Assembly: GCA_963665845.2 (NCBI GenBank)
Contig: OY762492.1
Coordinates: forward strand, 1,088,001 to 1,152,000
Length of the DNA stretch: 64,000 nt
From: Candidatus Poribacteria bacterium
GTDB taxonomy: Bacteria > Poribacteria > WGA-4E > GCA-2687025
Reading direction: 5' to 3'
Below the pieces are notes generated by a model. That model saw nothing but the letters and a program-made list of their open reading frames with translations. It did no database searches and was not told the origin of the DNA. A program made the translations under genes and the position numbers. Below, piece by piece: positions 12,581 through 27,578 of this stretch (its first letter is position 1; each line of letters starts with the position of its first letter).

Positions 12581-13549
12581 TTATCCTTTTTTGACAATCA
12601 GCAGCTCATGCGACCGCTTCACATGCCCGGCGCCCTGCTCCATGCGGTTTTTGCCGATGCGCGTCTCGCCTTGACCCAGGGTGTACTGCCACCGTACCTC
12701 CAGAACCTGAAAGTCGGCGTACCATCTTCTGACCGTTTTGCAGTCGTTATAGGACAGCACAAATCCGCCGCGGTGGTTGTGAAGCAGGTCGCGCAGCCGC
12801 TCATGTTGAAAGCCGTTGTGGTGGACGGGAAAGTTGCGCTGCGGATAAATGCCGCGAAACATCTTGCCCTCGTCCAAATAATACGGCGGATCGCAGTACA
12901 GAAAATCGCGCGGGTGGGCGGGTATCGTCTCTTCAAAGCTGCCGACATTTGCGGTCAACGAGGGGCAGCGGAAGTTGCGCACGGTCTCAACGGCGCGCGC
13001 GTATCGGCTCGGCGATTCGTAAATTTTAGACATCCAACCGAGAAAGCCCGGCCCGTAGGAGAGGTTATGGTTGAACCAGTAATGCGCCGCCAGCTCCATT
13101 GGGTCTTCGATCCGTTCCTCCTCCGTCCAGTGCGCTTTGAGCCGTTGTTTGATCTCGGCGTACTGCGTCTTGGTCGGCTCCCATTTTTCAAGCTTGTCTG
13201 CCAGCTTGCCGCCTGATTTCAGCTGCGTTTGCCAGTAGTTGATGAGTATGTCGAAGATGTCGTATGCGCGGACGCGCGCGCCCAGCTCCTTCGCCGCGGC
13301 GATCTCCACCGCGCCGCCGCCGATAAACGGCGACATGAGCCGCGTCAGGTCGTCGGGCAGATGCTCAAACACATAGCCGACGCCGAGGCTTTTGCCGCCG
13401 GCGTAACGAATCGGAAGCCCGCGGTAACGCTTGTATTGATACTTGCCCTGGCTTTTCAGCGACTCCAAAAAACGTATGCGCGCGGGAGTCTCTAAAAGGT
13501 CTCGTTGGACGGCGGGGCGGGTCTTGTCGGCGTCGGTTTGAGGCGGCAT
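12581..13549 (-). CDS. Dam/D12-class N6-adenine DNA methyltransferase
   Basis: IRYAGGKS, SPFIGGGAV, YCDPPYY, VLSYND. Confidence 0.92.
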   Translation of the reverse strand: MPPQTDADKTRPAVQRDLLETPARIRFLESLKSQGKYQYKRYRGLPIRYAGGKSLGVGYVFEHLPDDLTRLMSPFIGGGAVEIAAAKELGARVRAYDIFDILINYWQTQLKSGGKLADKLEKWEPTKTQYAEIKQRLKAHWTEEERIEDPMELAAHYWFNHNLSYGPGFLGWMSKIYESPSRYARAVETVRNFRCPSLTANVGSFEETIPAHPRDFLYCDPPYYLDEGKMFRGIYPQRNFPVHHNGFQHERLRDLLHNHRGGFVLSYNDCKTVRRWYADFQVLEVRWQYTLGQGETRIGKNRMEQGAGHVKRSHELLIVKKG

Positions 13550-16131: not shown

Positions 16132-16265
16132 GCGCAAACCGCGCAAACCCCCTTGACAAGGAGGAGTCCAGAAAACCCGCGCGCTGCCCGCTGTCCGCGT
16201 CCTTGACAAAACCGCGCATATGTCTCATATTAAAGCGATGGCAGCCTCTTTCTAGGGAGACAGCA

Positions 16266-17690
16266 ATGGAGCCGAACCACCTTTACTACGGCGACTGCCT
16301 AGACTGGATGCGGCAGTGGGACGCCGAATGCGTTGACCTGATCTACCTGGATCCGCCGTTCAACAGCGCCGCCAAATACAATGTCCTCTTCGCCGATGAA
16401 CCCGCAGGCGGCAAGGCGCAATATCGAGCCTTCAACGACACATGGCACTGGGACGACGCGGCGGTTGAGCGTTATGAAGCGTTTGAAAACGCCTTAGCGA
16501 AACCCGCCCGCGATACGATCGTCGGCTTGCGGCAAATACTCGGCAAAAGCGGTATGCTGGCGTATCTCACCTATATGGCGGAGCGGCTGATCGAGATGCG
16601 CCGCTTGCTGAAACCGACAGGCTCGCTCTATCTCCATTGCGACCCGACCGCCAGCCATTATCTCAAAATTGTGATGGACGCTATCTTCGGCAAGAAGAAT
16701 TTTAGAAATGAACTCGTGTGGTCATATCGTCGATGGCCGGCAAAACAACAGAATTTTCAAAGGATGCATGATGTCATCTTCCGATATTCTAAGACCGATA
16801 AGGTCATCTGGAATCAACTTTATGAGCCGTTGGCTGAATCAACGCTGAAGCGTTTTGGAGGCAAGCAAATTGTAAGCGCGATAAACGAAGACGGCCAGCG
16901 GGATCCATCGGTTACGTCAGACGAGAAATCGATGGGACCTCCCATGCGCGACGTTTGGAATATCGGCATTATTGCGCCAGCCGCCAAAGAGCGTCTAGGT
17001 TATCCGACGCAGAAGCCGCTTGCGCTGCTGGAGCGCATTATCAAGGCGTCCTCCAACGAAGGCGACATCGTCTTAGACCCGTTCTGCGGATGCGGCACAT
17101 CCATCGACGCCGCCCGGCGCCTCAACCGCCGATGGGCGGGCATTGACATCAGCTCTTTTGCGATCGACCTGATACGCAAGGAGCGGTTTAAAAACGAAGA
17201 CATACCCGCGAAGGGAATACCGCGGGACATGGCGTCGGCGCGCAAGTTGGCGCGCGAGAAGCCGTTCGATTTTGAATCCTGGGCGGTGATGCGCCTGCCA
17301 GGGTTCGCGCCGAATATGAAGCAGACAGGCGACGGCGGCGTGGACGGCAGGGCGGCGTTGGCGCATGCTCCGGACGGCGCCGAGTCGCGCCTCGCTTTAG
17401 CGCAGGTGAAGGGCGGGCGGTTCAGCCTGTCGCATCTGCGCGATTTCAGCGGCGTCATGGAACGCGATCAGGCGGCTCTCGGCTATTACATCACGTTGGA
17501 TCCTGTAGAGACGCGCGCCGCCCGGGCGGAAGCGCGCGAAAAAGGCAAGATCGCCATCCTAGGCGCCGAGTATGAACGGCTGCAGCTCTGGTCGATTCAT
17601 GACTATTTTGAACGGCGGCTTCCCAACCTTCCGCAGATGCTGAATCCGTACACGGGCAAGGAGCTGGATCAAACGCTCGCCCTGTTTTGA
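16266..17690 (+). CDS. N6/N4 DNA methyltransferase fused to a C-terminal Mrr-like nuclease domain
   Basis: [30 protein letters not shown], then DGGVDG...AQVKGG. GGAG RBS before ATG 16266. Confidence 0.85.
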
Positions 17691-18961: not shown

Positions 18962-19012
18962 ACGCGCCGCGCGGTATAACATGCGGGAATCTTAGGCGCC
19001 GCCAACCAGACC

Positions 19013-19087
19013 GTTCCCCGCTTCCGCGAGGACATGCATTCCAGCGCAAGCGGGAATCCAGAGGCGCCGCAGACGACGTCCGCGTTC
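19013..19087 (+). repeat. REP mosaic; left arm of the inverted pair flanking the toxin cassette
   Basis: 19050-19087 matches the reverse complement of 20353-20390 at 35 of 38 positions. Confidence 0.85.
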
Positions 19088-19190
19088 GTATTTAGAGCGG
19101 AACGCCCTGAGCCGACTCTGTATTGGCTTAAGGGGATTATACGCTAGGCGATCCTTGTATTTTGATTTTGATTGGAAATAACGGTAACGT

Positions 19191-19481
19191 TTACGCTAGT
19201 GAGTGTCGTTTGGATCGCCACTGTTTTTTGATTTTTTCGTATTCGCCGTGTGGTCCTGTCCAAAACCACACCATTTCGTTTGCGTCTTTGTAGCCGAGGA
19301 CTCTGAAGTTTGTATTGATCCAGATGCGATAGAGGTTGTTTGCGACTTCGGCAATTCGGAGGCTGCTGTGTCGGTTGTCCTTGTCAAAAAATTCGAGTTT
19401 TCGGTCGACGATTTCTCGTATGTGCGGTTGGAGTTTGTTGTAGGATTTTTCCCATCGTTTTGGGCAGCGGCTTGCTTTCAC
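19191..19481 (-). CDS. RelE/ParE-superfamily toxin
   Basis: 96 aa with FDKDNRHSSLRI...YRIWINTNFRVLG...VWFWTGPHGEYEKI, matching the HPSL...R...WFWIG.H..Y pattern. Confidence 0.82.
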   Translation of the reverse strand: MKASRCPKRWEKSYNKLQPHIREIVDRKLEFFDKDNRHSSLRIAEVANNLYRIWINTNFRVLGYKDANEMVWFWTGPHGEYEKIKKQWRSKRHSLA

Positions 19482-19484
19482 CGT

Positions 19485-20255
19485 TTATCCTTTGCGACGA
19501 GCTCGCTTCGATTCTTCGACCCATTCGTTCAGCATTTCGATTGAGTCGGAGTCTTTGAGCGTTTCGTCCCAGATTTTGTCCCATCGTTCCACTTCGTCCA
19601 CGATCTGTTTGAACGAGTCTCTGTAGAGACAGGGTTCGAGCAGGATTGCTTCATAGATATAGTCGCGCGCGGCGTCGGCTTCACCGTCGGCTTGATGCAG
19701 GAGTCCTTTTTGTAAGTATGCGTTTGCGAATTCTGGTTCGATGGCAATCACGTTTGTAAGGATTGTGTGCGCTTTATCCGACGCGCCCATTTGTCCGTAT
19801 GCCATTGCGAGATTGCAGTGGATTGGCGGAACTACATTTGACCAGCCATGTTTTTGAAACAGCAGGCCGGCGTTTTCAAGATCGTCAACCACATCATTTA
19901 GAGGCGGTTGATCATCTTTCATAAGGTTTCGCAGAAGTCCGATGTTTCCGCTGTGTGCATAAACGTCTGCCATGCCGATTGAGTCGACTGAGTCGGCGTC
20001 GGTTTTCATGAGCGACCCGGCTTTTTTAAAATGAGAATATGCTCGTCGGAGATCCAATTTTATTTCCGGGGCGTTTCCGTCAATGTAGTGCGCCAACGCT
20101 CGCATGAACGCGGATTTACCCTGTTTCATCGTCTCCGCTATCATGTCCCCGACATCAAGCGGTCGGACGAGAAATGTCGGTCCAGCGAGGAATGGTTGTA
20201 GCGACGCTTGTATCATAGCGTCCGATCTTGTTTCAGCCTCATGCGCTTGCAACAT
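19485..20255 (-). CDS. TPR-repeat protein with an antitoxin-like C-terminal tail
   Basis: TPR motifs (HCNLAMAYGQMG...IEPEFANAYLQKGLLHQADG...AILLEP) followed by EVERWDKIWDETLKDSDSIEMLNEWVEESKRARRKG. GGAGGAGG RBS; stop is 3 bp before the toxin start. Confidence 0.7.
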   Translation of the reverse strand: MLQAHEAETRSDAMIQASLQPFLAGPTFLVRPLDVGDMIAETMKQGKSAFMRALAHYIDGNAPEIKLDLRRAYSHFKKAGSLMKTDADSVDSIGMADVYAHSGNIGLLRNLMKDDQPPLNDVVDDLENAGLLFQKHGWSNVVPPIHCNLAMAYGQMGASDKAHTILTNVIAIEPEFANAYLQKGLLHQADGEADAARDYIYEAILLEPCLYRDSFKQIVDEVERWDKIWDETLKDSDSIEMLNEWVEESKRARRKG

Positions 20256-20281
20256 TCGCAGCCTCCTCCAAAACGTAAGTC

Positions 20282-20310
20282 AGTTTACCATAAAGACGTC
20301 CGGAAAGCAA
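20282..20310 (-). promoter_or_regulatory. Putative sigma70 promoter of the TPR-toxin operon
   Basis: TTGCTT-17bp-TAAACT with TG extension. Confidence 0.55.
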
Positions 20311-20352
20311 ACAAACCGACATCGCGTCTTTAATTGGGACATGTCGGCATGG

Positions 20353-20428
20353 GAACGCGGACATCTTCTGCGGCGCCTCTAGATTCCCGCACGTTACATC
20401 TTACCGCAAGGGCAGGGGCGGGAATGAC
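20353..20428 (-). repeat. REP mosaic; right arm of the inverted pair flanking the toxin cassette
   Basis: GAACGCGGACATCTTCTGCGGCGCCTCTAGATTCCCGC...GCGGGAATGAC. Confidence 0.85.
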
Positions 20429-23253: not shown

Positions 23254-24336
23254 ATGACCGCCCCGCTTCAAGAGATACGCCGCGCCTTCGATGCGTTCAA
23301 AGCGCAGGCGCGAAAAGACCCAACCTCCGGCGACGATCTGCTGAACGAGGCTTATGATTTGGTCGAGGCGGCGCTGGAGGGAACGCTGACGCCCGAACTG
23401 GCGCGGCTCGCCCACAAGGTTTACGGCTACAAAGGCAAGCTTGGCTGGGCAAAGCGCGTTCAGCTGCATCGGCGGCGTCTGGAGGGAGACCTAGACGACA
23501 AGGAAAGGTTCTGGTCCTGGTGGGAGATGGTGGACGCGCTCGCCGTCCTGCGGCGGAGCAAGGAGACGGTTGAGGAACAGGAGCGGCTTTACCGCTGGGC
23601 GCGGGAAGTCTCGCCGCATGAGTTTGCCCTGAAAGCGCTGGACGACACGACGCAGGCGCGCTGCTGGTCGGCGGAACGGCGGCTGGACGACTGGTTTCAG
23701 CTGTACGAAGAGGCGGCGCAGATTCTCGACAGCCCCGAAGTGAGCAAGTATCGGCGCTGCAGTTTTTTACAGGCGGGGATGGAAGTGTCCCGGGGGTTTG
23801 GCGGAGATACGGACAGCGCGCTGCGTTATCTGGACGCAATGGAGCAGGCGAACGACGACCCTGAATGGAGCGGCTATTTTCGCTTCTGGATGGCGGGAAT
23901 CGAGAACCGCCTGCTGATCCACTGGGGGCGGGATGAAGAGGCATTTGACGCGGCGGCGGAAGAGGCGCTGACATATATCGACGCGCAGCTGGAGAAGCGA
24001 GACGGCGGACAGAGCATCGACATATCGAAGCTGCGCTGGGCGTGTCATAACATCGGCTGCTGCATGCTTTGGTCGGGGCGGTTTCAGAGGGCGGCGGACA
24101 TTCTTGAGAAAGCGATTCAGGTCGAAGACAGCGACGCTCATACGCACTTTTTTCTGTCGGCGGCCGTCTGGGCGGGCGAGAAGGACAAGGAGAAGACGCT
24201 CCGCCACCTGAAAAGGGCGACCGATTTCACGCTCAACACGAACCGCGGCATGATCGGACAGAATTTCTTAAACGAATACGCGTTTAAAGATGTGAGAGGG
24301 GACGCGGAGTTTCGCGCGGCGACGGGGCTTGAATAA
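23254..24336 (+). CDS. Helical/TPR-like hypothetical protein
   Basis: AGGAG RBS; C-terminal TPR-like segment CHNIGCCMLWSGRFQRAADILEKAIQVE. Confidence 0.7.
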   Translation: MTAPLQEIRRAFDAFKAQARKDPTSGDDLLNEAYDLVEAALEGTLTPELARLAHKVYGYKGKLGWAKRVQLHRRRLEGDLDDKERFWSWWEMVDALAVLRRSKETVEEQERLYRWAREVSPHEFALKALDDTTQARCWSAERRLDDWFQLYEEAAQILDSPEVSKYRRCSFLQAGMEVSRGFGGDTDSALRYLDAMEQANDDPEWSGYFRFWMAGIENRLLIHWGRDEEAFDAAAEEALTYIDAQLEKRDGGQSIDISKLRWACHNIGCCMLWSGRFQRAADILEKAIQVEDSDAHTHFFLSAAVWAGEKDKEKTLRHLKRATDFTLNTNRGMIGQNFLNEYAFKDVRGDAEFRAATGLE

Positions 24337-24360: not shown

Positions 24361-24897
24361 CTAAAAGACGATCGGCTCTCCGGCGTCTTCGCTGTCGTCT
24401 TCCGCTTCGCCGCTTTCTTGGCTGGCAAATGTCTTTAAAAGATGCTCCGCCACGGAATTGAAGTCATGGAGGATCGCTTTTTTAATGTTCTCCATCGCGG
24501 CGTCCTCATTGCCCTGCTGCGCGTATATTTTGCCCATGCGCAGGTAGGTCTTGGCGTCGGGTTTCAGTTCCGTTGACTTGACGAGATCTGCAATTGCCTC
24601 ATCCATGTTGACCGAATCGGGATCGATCTCGTTCAGTATACCCGTAGTACGGGCGCGCCAGTAGTAAATCTGCGCCAGCAAGCTGTTCGCCACTTCGTCA
24701 AGGTCGCTCTGAGCCGACAGTATCTCAATTCCCGCATTAAAATGTTGAAACGCCTTCGTGAGCGCAGCCTTGGCGCCGCTCTTGTTTGCGATACGGATCT
24801 CCGCCTGCGCCTCCCCCATGGCGGCGTCCGCTTCTCTCATTTCATTTTCAACCGCTGCGATGTAGTGAATGCTTTCCAGTTTCTGCTGACGCTGCAT
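24361..24897 (-). CDS. TPR-containing protein with an acidic tail
   Basis: GGAGG RBS; DEAIADLVKSTELKPDAKTYLRMGKIYAQQGNEDAAMENIKKAI. Confidence 0.72.
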   Translation of the reverse strand: MQRQQKLESIHYIAAVENEMREADAAMGEAQAEIRIANKSGAKAALTKAFQHFNAGIEILSAQSDLDEVANSLLAQIYYWRARTTGILNEIDPDSVNMDEAIADLVKSTELKPDAKTYLRMGKIYAQQGNEDAAMENIKKAILHDFNSVAEHLLKTFASQESGEAEDDSEDAGEPIVF

Positions 24898-25064: not shown

Positions 25065-26340
25065 GGGTACTACACGTTTGATTTGCCAGAGGCATATACC
25101 CCGCCATTGTTTTCAGCGTTGCGTTTTTTTTTACGTTTTTTCTTGTCGTAATTCGTTCCTTACGACTCATCTTGGGCGGGCGGCGTTGCGTTGGACGCAA
25201 CGCTGCCAGCCCATTTCATGTAATCTCCTACAACTACCGATTTTATTTCCGCTCTCGCGCTTGTTTTGGCGCATTCGGCACAATCTACCGCTGCAACCAT
25301 ACCGTCAATACCTGGTCAATACCTGCTAGGTATCCTGCCTCACAGGTTTTAGAACTGCAACCGCCTTATTTGACCAGATCCGCGTAGGTAAGGCGTTTAC
25401 CGACCATGCGCGGAACAATCTTGGCAAGCGTTTCGATGCGGTTGTCGTTTCCAACATTGAAGCGGTAGACGAATTCTTTGACGTATAGACCCAAATGTTT
25501 AGGCGACATGAAATGGTAAACGGCGCAGTATCCGCGTTTCAGGACGGCCCAGAACGACTCGATGCTGTTGGTGTGAACATCGCCGCGAACATACTCGCCT
25601 TTCTGATGCGAGACAGCGGCATGCGCGTATTCCTCCATGCCCTTGTAGGTCGGGAGAGCGTCGGTATAAACGGTGGACCCAGGCGCCACATTCGCCCTTA
25701 CAGCGCCAAGCGCCGTTTCTATCCTCATATTGTCCAGCAGAAGCGCGCGGATTTCGCCGTTCCTTTGACGCATGCCGATCACGGTCTGCTTGCCGCGGGT
25801 TCCGCTTCTGACGCCCAGCTTTTTTCTGCGATGCTTACTACCCTCTTTGCCGCCGACGTAGACCTCGTCTATCTCCACGGTTCCGCTCAGCATTTCGTCG
25901 TCGCTTACCATCGCGGCTCGGATGCGGCGGCCTAGGGACCATGCGGAGTCCTGCCTTATGCCCAGTAGCTTTCCCATCGTAACGCTCGATACGCCCTTCT
26001 TAAACGTCAGGAGCAAGTAGAGCGCCAGAAGCCATAGATGCAAGGGGATTTTGCTTTTCTCCATGATGGTTCCCGTGCGGACGCTGAAATAGTTGCGGCA
26101 TGTTCGGCATCTGAGCGGCATTGGTTTGGCGTTTTTCACTCGGGCGATGTTTTTGGAATCGCATCGGGGGCAGCAGATGTGCTTCGGCCATCGGCTTTCT
26201 TCAAAGAATCGGGCGGCGCTTTTTTCATCGGGATACTTTTCAAAGATCTCGTAGATACTGGTAGACCGCATTGGAATTTCCTTTCTCAATCTCCCTTTAG
26301 AGTAGCGCAATCCGCTTATCTAGTCAAACGTGTAGTACCC
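25065..26340 (-). mobile_element. IS1595-family insertion sequence
   Basis: Perfect terminal inverted repeats GGGTACTACACGTTTGA at both ends. Flanking direct repeat CTTTTCAAG at 25056-25064 and 26341-26349 (7-bp TTTTCAA if one more G/C is assigned to each TIR). Confidence 0.93.
25366..26310 (-). CDS. IS1595-family DDE transposase
   Basis: Zn ribbon CPRC...CRTC, VEIDEVYVGG, VYTD, HTNSIESFW, YVKEFVYRFN. True start may be ATG 26271. Confidence 0.93.
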   Translation of the reverse strand: MRYSKGRLRKEIPMRSTSIYEIFEKYPDEKSAARFFEESRWPKHICCPRCDSKNIARVKNAKPMPLRCRTCRNYFSVRTGTIMEKSKIPLHLWLLALYLLLTFKKGVSSVTMGKLLGIRQDSAWSLGRRIRAAMVSDDEMLSGTVEIDEVYVGGKEGSKHRRKKLGVRSGTRGKQTVIGMRQRNGEIRALLLDNMRIETALGAVRANVAPGSTVYTDALPTYKGMEEYAHAAVSHQKGEYVRGDVHTNSIESFWAVLKRGYCAVYHFMSPKHLGLYVKEFVYRFNVGNDNRIETLAKIVPRMVGKRLTYADLVK

Positions 26341-26681: not shown

Positions 26682-27578
26682 TCAACCGTGTCTTAACTCT
26701 TGAAATTGATCATGGTTTTGCTTTGATTCGCGGAGTTTCAGATGCAGCTGCTCATCCTCCTTCAGCCGCTCAACGCAGAGCCTGTAATACTCTTCGTTTT
26801 GCTCAATGCCGATATAGCGGCGGTCAAGCTGCTTGGCGGCTTGCGCGGTTGTGCCGCTGCCTAAGAACGGGTCTAGTACGACATCGCCCCGCCGCGTGAA
26901 GAGGCGTATGAACCAGGAGGGCAGCTCCAACGGAAATGCCGCGCTATGCCCCTTGTTTGCGCATTCGGTCGCCATATGGAGAACGTTGGTCGGATACACC
27001 TTATCGCGTCCGACCCAGTTGGCGACGCGCTTTCCGAAGCCGCTGTCGGAGCGGGACGTGTCGCGGACGCGGTCCGTCTCGGTCAGCTTTCCGAGCCGCC
27101 GGTCCGCCCAGTCGCCGACAGGAACCATCACCTCCTCTTGGTACATGTCGAATTGCCGCCGTTTGGTGAAATGGAGGCAGCGCTCCCAGGCGTCGCGGAA
27201 ACGGTTCGGCCATTTGCCGGGGTAGCAGTTTTTCTTATGCCAGCAGTACTCCTCCGTCCATAGCCACCCCTGCCGGCGCAGCGCCAAAATCAGCTCAAGA
27301 ACATAGGTGTGCCGTTCGCCGTTCACCGCCAGCTCTTTGATGTTGAGTATGAACGACCCGCGCTCGTTCAGGACGCGCCGCAGCTCCTCGCCAATCGGCA
27401 AAAACCATTCGACATACTGATCGGGATGAATGCCGCCGTAGGATTTGCTTCGCCGGTCGGCGTAAGGCGGCGAGGTTACAATCAGATGGACAGATTCGTC
27501 TGGGAGACTCGGCAAAACGCGGCGGCAGTCTCCCTCATACAGCTCTCCGCCCGTCAACTCGGTTTTCGTTATCCTCAT
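26682..27578 (-). CDS. Beta-class DNA methyltransferase (probably N4-cytosine), no adjacent REase
   Basis: IVTSPPY before HSAAFP and DPFLGSGTT. Confidence 0.9.
   Translation of the reverse strand: MRITKTELTGGELYEGDCRRVLPSLPDESVHLIVTSPPYADRRSKSYGGIHPDQYVEWFLPIGEELRRVLNERGSFILNIKELAVNGERHTYVLELILALRRQGWLWTEEYCWHKKNCYPGKWPNRFRDAWERCLHFTKRRQFDMYQEEVMVPVGDWADRRLGKLTETDRVRDTSRSDSGFGKRVANWVGRDKVYPTNVLHMATECANKGHSAAFPLELPSWFIRLFTRRGDVVLDPFLGSGTTAQAAKQLDRRYIGIEQNEEYYRLCVERLKEDEQLHLKLRESKQNHDQFQELRHG

Follow-up and report, generated by a model that had tools for sequence, protein, structure and literature searches.

A 64,000-nucleotide stretch of a Poribacteria genome (hereafter, the window) carries a two-gene module for which we propose that the C-terminal tail of a 256-residue protein neutralises a RelE-fold toxin, while the swappable TPR head of the same protein binds a trigger that releases the toxin; as a whole, we hold this reading to be very nearly evenly balanced. 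It starts from the modelled fold of the toxin, the homology of the tail to small stand-alone proteins, the linkage of the two genes, the expansion of the family, and the reassortment of its heads. The architecture is real and apparently undescribed, a variant of type II TA systems that recurs across antitoxin families within one phylum.

Gene layout and expression signals

Both genes lie on the minus strand (Table 1), the partner gene starting with ATG and the toxin gene with GTG after a gap of 3 bp. The GC content of the pair is ~50% against 59.7% for contig C1 of the genome carrying the window (G000), which bears out the AT-richer two-gene unit described in an earlier note made from the DNA letters. 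The ribosome-binding site claimed there was also found (GGAGGAGG, 6 nt before the ATG), along with AAGGA before the GTG of the toxin gene; of the promoter claimed for the pair, a weak candidate chosen by eye is left (7/12 match), the promoter scan having returned none on the minus strand. A 1,337-bp contig identical to positions 19059-20395, with zero differences, was recovered in two of four sequencing runs (from one study, possibly the source of the assembly), so an assembly error is not an obvious explanation for the fusion. At 19481-19487, partner and toxin share one reading frame with TAA-ACG between them, and other copies overlap in other frames; read-through of this stop into the toxin gene was therefore rejected as a conserved feature.

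Table 1. Features of the two-gene module, in window coordinates.
Feature	Position	Strand	Basis
Dispersed intergenic repeat copy, left flank	18994..19095	+	Repeat search
RelE/YoeB-fold toxin gene, 96 aa, GTG start	19191..19481	-	ORF, Pfam, paralogs, model, Foldseek
TPR-headed antitoxin-like gene, 256 aa (P0001), ATG start	19485..20255	-	ORF, Pfam, model, profile comparison
Toxin Shine-Dalgarno AAGGA, inside 3' end of upstream gene	19488..19492	-	By eye; 6 nt before GTG
Antitoxin-like tail, residues 209-256	19488..19631	-	Helices 213-234 and 236-254; paralog alignment, model, profile
Conserved TPR pair, residues 141-208	19632..19835	-	Pfam TPR_8/TPR_1/TPR_17; Foldseek TPR proteins
Variable head, residues 1-140	19836..20255	-	Model; four predicted helices over 35-135; 1-29 low confidence
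Shine-Dalgarno GGAGGAGG	20262..20269	-	Sequence, by eye; 6 nt before ATG
Weak candidate promoter TTGCTT-17-TAAACT with extended -10 TG	20282..20310	-	By eye, 7/12 match
Second repeat copy, inverted relative to the left one	20313..20390	-	35/38 bases alike

On C1, the dispersed repeat that flanks the pair has 702 core matches, grouped into 527 clusters, and occurs in 37% of the 100-700-bp spacers (415/1132). Repeat-mediated mobility of the module was considered and set aside: 8 of 12 modules have a repeat within 350 bp, but ~60% would be expected from the spacers.

The toxin and the antitoxin-like partner

The 96-residue protein has a RelE/YoeB fold. Its model reaches a pLDDT of 90.4, with YoeB as the top Foldseek match (E 2.5e-4, TM 0.64) followed by RelE, HigB, and YafQ, in agreement with the RelE/ParE-like toxin named in the earlier note. 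The window toxin alone scored 17.5 bits against ParE_like (PF24732; cut-off 24.4), and a HigB-like match was also weak. ParE_like matched 6 of 7 toxin paralogs at E<=0.1 (best 1e-10), two relatives scored 38.4 and 40.7 bits, and a profile of 17 toxin relatives retrieved archaeal RelE3 (E 0.002) and E. coli RelE. The motif HPSL...WFWIG.H..Y, on which the toxin had been recognised, is present in its WFW.G.H..Y part and departs from expectation in its first part (HSSL...WFWTGPHGEY), HPSL being found in the relatives. In the alignment, R60 falls on the YR of E. coli RelE, a presumed catalytic position.

The window toxin is divergent (17-42% identity to relatives), has IAE where relatives carry FKK besides HSSL for HPSL, starts with GTG, and follows a tail ~10 residues shorter than most, features that could mark the window copy as decaying, its toxin inactive within an otherwise real family. 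We consider this highly improbable: both frames are intact and preceded by two ribosome-binding sites, the six invariant toxin columns (H78 among the invariant positions) are all kept, the model pLDDT is 90, and the tails of the relatives P0113 and L042 are short as well.

The partner (P0001) was modelled as an all-helical protein (pLDDT 86) with residues 1-29 at low confidence and two terminal helices after the TPRs. The N-terminus of about 200 helical or TPR residues claimed for it holds for two canonical TPRs at residues ~145-208 (TPR_8 29 bits, cut-off 25.7) and for predicted helices over 35-135; the latter have no canonical TPR score. Foldseek with the model returned TPR proteins, chaperone and adaptor TPRs among them, and an Atlas search returned generic TPR clusters only, with recognition below threshold. 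TPR families were the only matches, and no DNA-binding domain was recognised by Pfam or Foldseek.

The last ~40 residues had been likened to a segment of small antitoxins, and the tail is indeed homologous to a small partner of 70-74 aa: hhalign against 27 such proteins gave a probability of 98.8 (E 4.5e-17) over residues 201-256, the first columns being weak. F215 and W229 are invariant across 12 tail paralogs. A single-sequence homolog search with the window protein recovered the query alone, and the relatives emerged by profile, that of the 12 tails retrieving 237 proteins among 1.84 billion representatives. Among the best 150 of these 237 matches, 127 are of <=115 aa, and TPRs are present in 14, of which 5 come from G000; the tail also stands behind other N-terminal parts, which makes it a mobile module. 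Of 174 other genomes in the phylum, 123 contain the small partner in unfused form (small-form frames of <=183 aa among the matches listed, with 62 more matches beyond these), and at 7 of the 12 loci inspected outside the genus it stands ahead of the same toxin family; given this wide unfused occurrence and toxin linkage, the stand-alone form is likely ancestral and the TPR fusion derived. Pfam, NCBIfam, and PDB gave no match to the small family, which, like the partner in the window, has no recognised DNA-binding domain, nor any other recognised domain; an Atlas cluster resembling it is named 'addiction module component', a lead only. We regard neutralisation of the toxin by the tail as highly probable.

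Distribution and surroundings of the family

G000 holds 12 TPR+tail genes, of which 7 have an intact toxin behind them, 1 has a split toxin, and 4 have none. G001, of the same genus, holds 11 (5 intact, 2 broken or start-less, and 4 toxin-free), three tandem pairs among them. Every one of the 23 tails in these genomes is part of an in-frame fusion. The 15 toxin genes of this family lie directly behind a TPR+tail gene in every case, none being found away from such genes in G000 or G001, so the linkage holds in other copies and in a second genome; together with the small form (7/12), this makes a conserved, closely spaced two-gene unit, as in type II TA systems. Across 176 genomes (<=27 candidates scored per genome), TPRs with a window-type tail were found in two, G000 and G001, and the TPR half alone was matched in six others. 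A metagenome scan gave 5 weak loci, and a tree of the fused tails (54 columns) was poorly resolved as to a single origin.

Three of the 12 G000 loci are in TA clusters and most others lie amid housekeeping genes; zero relatives were found in viral contigs. At the orthologous site in G001, the flanking genes are 281 bp apart and the module is absent. G000 and G001 are ~90% alike in DNA (L044-L052 compared), yet rearranged every few kilobases; although 8 of 9 related loci have the module at a synteny break, this was not used, many other rearrangements being present in these loci.

Elsewhere in the window, a 178-residue TPR protein (24361-24897, minus strand) is related to the L007 head and lacks the antitoxin tail; its last residues, ...EPIVF, are like those of the tail. 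A similar gene is located at G000:C1:2515846-2516394, and the two are possibly tail-deleted derivatives. Convergent with the 178-residue gene is one for a 360-residue helical protein with a weak TPR match (23254-24336, plus strand). The window also contains a gene that joins an N6/N4 methylase to an Mrr-type nuclease domain (16203-17690, plus strand), of which G001 has many similar copies, further methylases (12581-13549 and 26682-27578), and an IS1595-family transposase (25366-26310).

Head exchange and selection

Mean identity among copies was 29% for heads, 44% for the TPR pair, and 43% for tails, and the best identity of the window head to another copy was 32%. A search for homologs with a conserved tail and toxin and a variable TPR region, one of the checks proposed earlier, found them: over 12 intact pairs (related sequences, non-independent), the Mantel rho with the toxin was 0.82 for the tail, 0.61 for the TPR pair, and 0.27 for the head. 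Individual loci give the same picture. L007 and L013 are 88% alike in the tail and 75% in the toxin but only 38% in the head; L003 and L011 are 78% and 76% alike in tail and toxin, and the nearest head of each lies elsewhere; conversely, the heads of L027a and L027b are 97% alike and their tails and toxins different. The head type of L003 and L004 is also found on a protein with another tail, encoded ahead of a VapC-like PIN gene, and P0163 has it on a third antitoxin type, so that one head type is carried by three predicted antitoxin types. The head swaps and the Mantel contrast thus uncouple a variable, sensor-type part from a neutralising-type part. In a 682-residue TPR protein, an L011-like core (46%) is joined to a 181-residue PIN partner, which also occurs unfused (58%); at L011:4523-7628, three tandem copies of a 181-residue protein and a PIN gene were noticed, the PIN genes apparently split.

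For a single syntenic pair, dN/dS was 0.38 in the head, 0.33 in the TPR pair, 0.55 in the tail, and 0.35 in the toxin, against 0.05 in a flanking gene (which we take to be inositol synthase-like), values that point to a module evolving fast but constrained. There was no sign of positive selection, head dN/dS being 0.17-0.75 (<1) in four close pairs. The divergence of the heads bears on a reading in which the partner of the head is a chaperone or protease adaptor of the host, tying antitoxin turnover to the state of the cell instead of to phage. TPRs are general protein-binding scaffolds, Foldseek retrieved chaperone and adaptor TPRs, and the loci are outside prophages and clear defence islands, all of which would suit such a host-stress input; a conserved partner, however, predicts a conserved head, and the heads are less alike than the TPR pair (29% versus 44%), so we regard this input as unlikely.

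TPR fusions to other antitoxins

Predicted TPR-antitoxin fusions recur with several antitoxin types in Poribacteria. G000 has four TPR+UPF0175 genes, three of them followed by DUF3368 PIN genes; the four form a cluster (G000:C1:1300763-1310760; L043:3764-13759) and carry 1 to 20 repeats. In the phylum, 47 of the ~150 UPF0175 matches listed fall in frames >200 aa (hand count; 289 matches lie beyond these). All 20 loci sampled from the 46 long-frame loci outside G000 have TPRs (2-20 each) fused to UPF0175, 18 of the 20 with an adjacent PIN match (broken in 3), and the fusion is kept across four families. L116, L117, L119, and L108 have a TIR_2-TPR-UPF0175 or FRG-TPR-UPF0175 arrangement before PIN genes (L116 and L108 Pfam-checked). 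A UPF0175 tree grouped 26 fused rows apart from 10 small ones (support 99/98), a weak separation, as cap residues common to the fused rows stand in the alignment and the small rows were top Pfam hits.

A survey of three genomes showed the same TPR cap mostly at the end of the protein; in other cases, it is joined to an antitoxin-like segment ahead of a ParE_toxin gene or to a TaqI_C (TaqI-type specificity) domain, or has antitoxin-like genes, unfused, behind it. One TPR-antitoxin fusion retains the antitoxin's own Met, which with the unfused neighbours suggests simple stop-codon loss as the fusion route. L124, L127, L137, and L148 combine the TPR cap with a 350-residue C-terminal part (TaqI_C in L124), and the gene behind these fusions presumably begins like an ATPase. 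Unfused antitoxin-PIN pairs are also present in G000 (90% complete), where the ParE_toxin and HicA families had zero matches.

These fusions could also have a plain origin, an ordinary TA antitoxin having gained a TPR gene by fusion to its neighbour, so that the TPRs stabilise or dimerise the tail of a selfish cassette. The cap with both fused and unfused neighbours fits this, as do the 11 of 23 copies without an intact toxin (8 without a toxin, 3 broken or start-less), the cassette missing from the orthologous G001 site, and the abundance of TPR genes, the commonest repeat class in Poribacteria (PMC3909097). Such a passenger would hardly be expected to stay fused and in frame in 23 of 23 cases, to replace part of the antitoxin at the junction instead of adding to it, to exchange heads at dN/dS <1, or to retain the UPF0175 fusion over four families; this origin is a serious contender that we nevertheless doubt.

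Proposed mechanism and implications

In the mechanism that we favour, the TPR array would have replaced the first helix of the ancestral 70-residue partner, the second helix (213-234) would continue straight from the last TPR repeat, and binding of a ligand to the head could move or uncover the tail. RelE/YoeB toxins cut mRNA at the ribosome, and the window toxin, once freed, would do the same. The head may or may not be a ligand-binding input with about equal probability. Among triggers, a phage protein would be the most likely and a host protein is possible, though a phage ligand as such is a tentative proposal, below the even chance of the head being an input. The sensor-gated TA defence system suggested in the earlier note is favoured by the homologous tail, the linked pair, and the variable head; on the defence side, PADLOC (2023 library) returned nothing at E<=1, giving no homology to described defence proteins, and no relative turned up in the viral contigs. 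The 11 of 23 TPR+tail genes without an intact toxin, the mostly housekeeping surroundings, and the lack of positive selection also speak against a sensor.

Conceivably, though we think it rather improbable, Poribacteria have a combinatorial, NLR-like immune repertoire of TPR heads on antitoxins, in which recognition of a foreign protein frees an RNase; such heads would stand on at least 5 antitoxin types (a ParE_like partner, UPF0175, two PIN partners, and a ParE partner). If true, part of the abundant 'eukaryote-like' TPR proteins of this phylum would serve anti-phage immunity and not dialogue with the sponge host, a testable alternative to the usual host-interaction reading (PMC3909097). It is an open question what triggers type II TA systems; antitoxins with a defined sensor are few. 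One repeat scaffold on several unrelated antitoxins, with natural head swaps, offers ready-made test pairs (e.g., the same head with different toxins, or the same toxin with different heads). Searches for TA systems that limit the size of the antitoxin, or annotation by TPRs alone, would overlook these fusions.

Comparison with known systems

The window pair shares its toxin fold and size, the antitoxin-first order, and a C-terminal helical, likely neutralising segment with RelBE, YefM-YoeB, DinJ-YafQ, and ParE_like systems. Unlike RelBE-type antitoxins, the partner has 200 helical or TPR residues at its N-terminus and no domain recognised for the DNA binding of classical autorepression. UPF0175 (COG2886) and DUF3368 PIN (COG2405) proteins are a predicted TA pair of small proteins (PMC2701414, PMC5499597); the same predicted pair is found in G000 and the phylum, but here UPF0175 stands behind 1-20 TPRs, in some cases with an N-terminal TIR_2 or FRG.

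Among systems with proposed sensors, the antitoxin part of CapRel SJ46 is proposed to sense a phage protein directly; there, a toxSAS toxin and its antitoxin form a single chain in which sensing and neutralisation fall to one domain (PMC9712102), whereas the window system has two genes, a RelE fold, a head separate from the tail, and a putative trigger. In STAND/AVAST-like proteins, TPRs are proposed as sensors of phage or infection upstream of a toxic effector (PMC9122126); the NTPase of those proteins is absent here, and in place of oligomerisation, an antitoxin tail would let go of the toxin.

No description of TPR-antitoxin fusions was found in the literature searched (few subscription papers, no supplements). 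Two apparent reports were discarded, 'TPR' standing for true positive rate in PMC9424990 and, in a HicA preprint (bioRxiv 2023.12.08.570793), for a neighbour label only. By analogy, the nearest concept is the multidomain PanA of NetFlax systems, in which an exchangeable neutralising element is combined with a second, hypothesised sensor domain and reused across toxin families (PMC10440598). The main text of that paper, supplements aside, has 0 occurrences of 'TPR'. In both systems, a neutralising element is linked linearly to a separate proposed sensor domain; the domain shared among the fusions described here is a TPR array variable in length and sequence, and not Panacea (PMC10440598).
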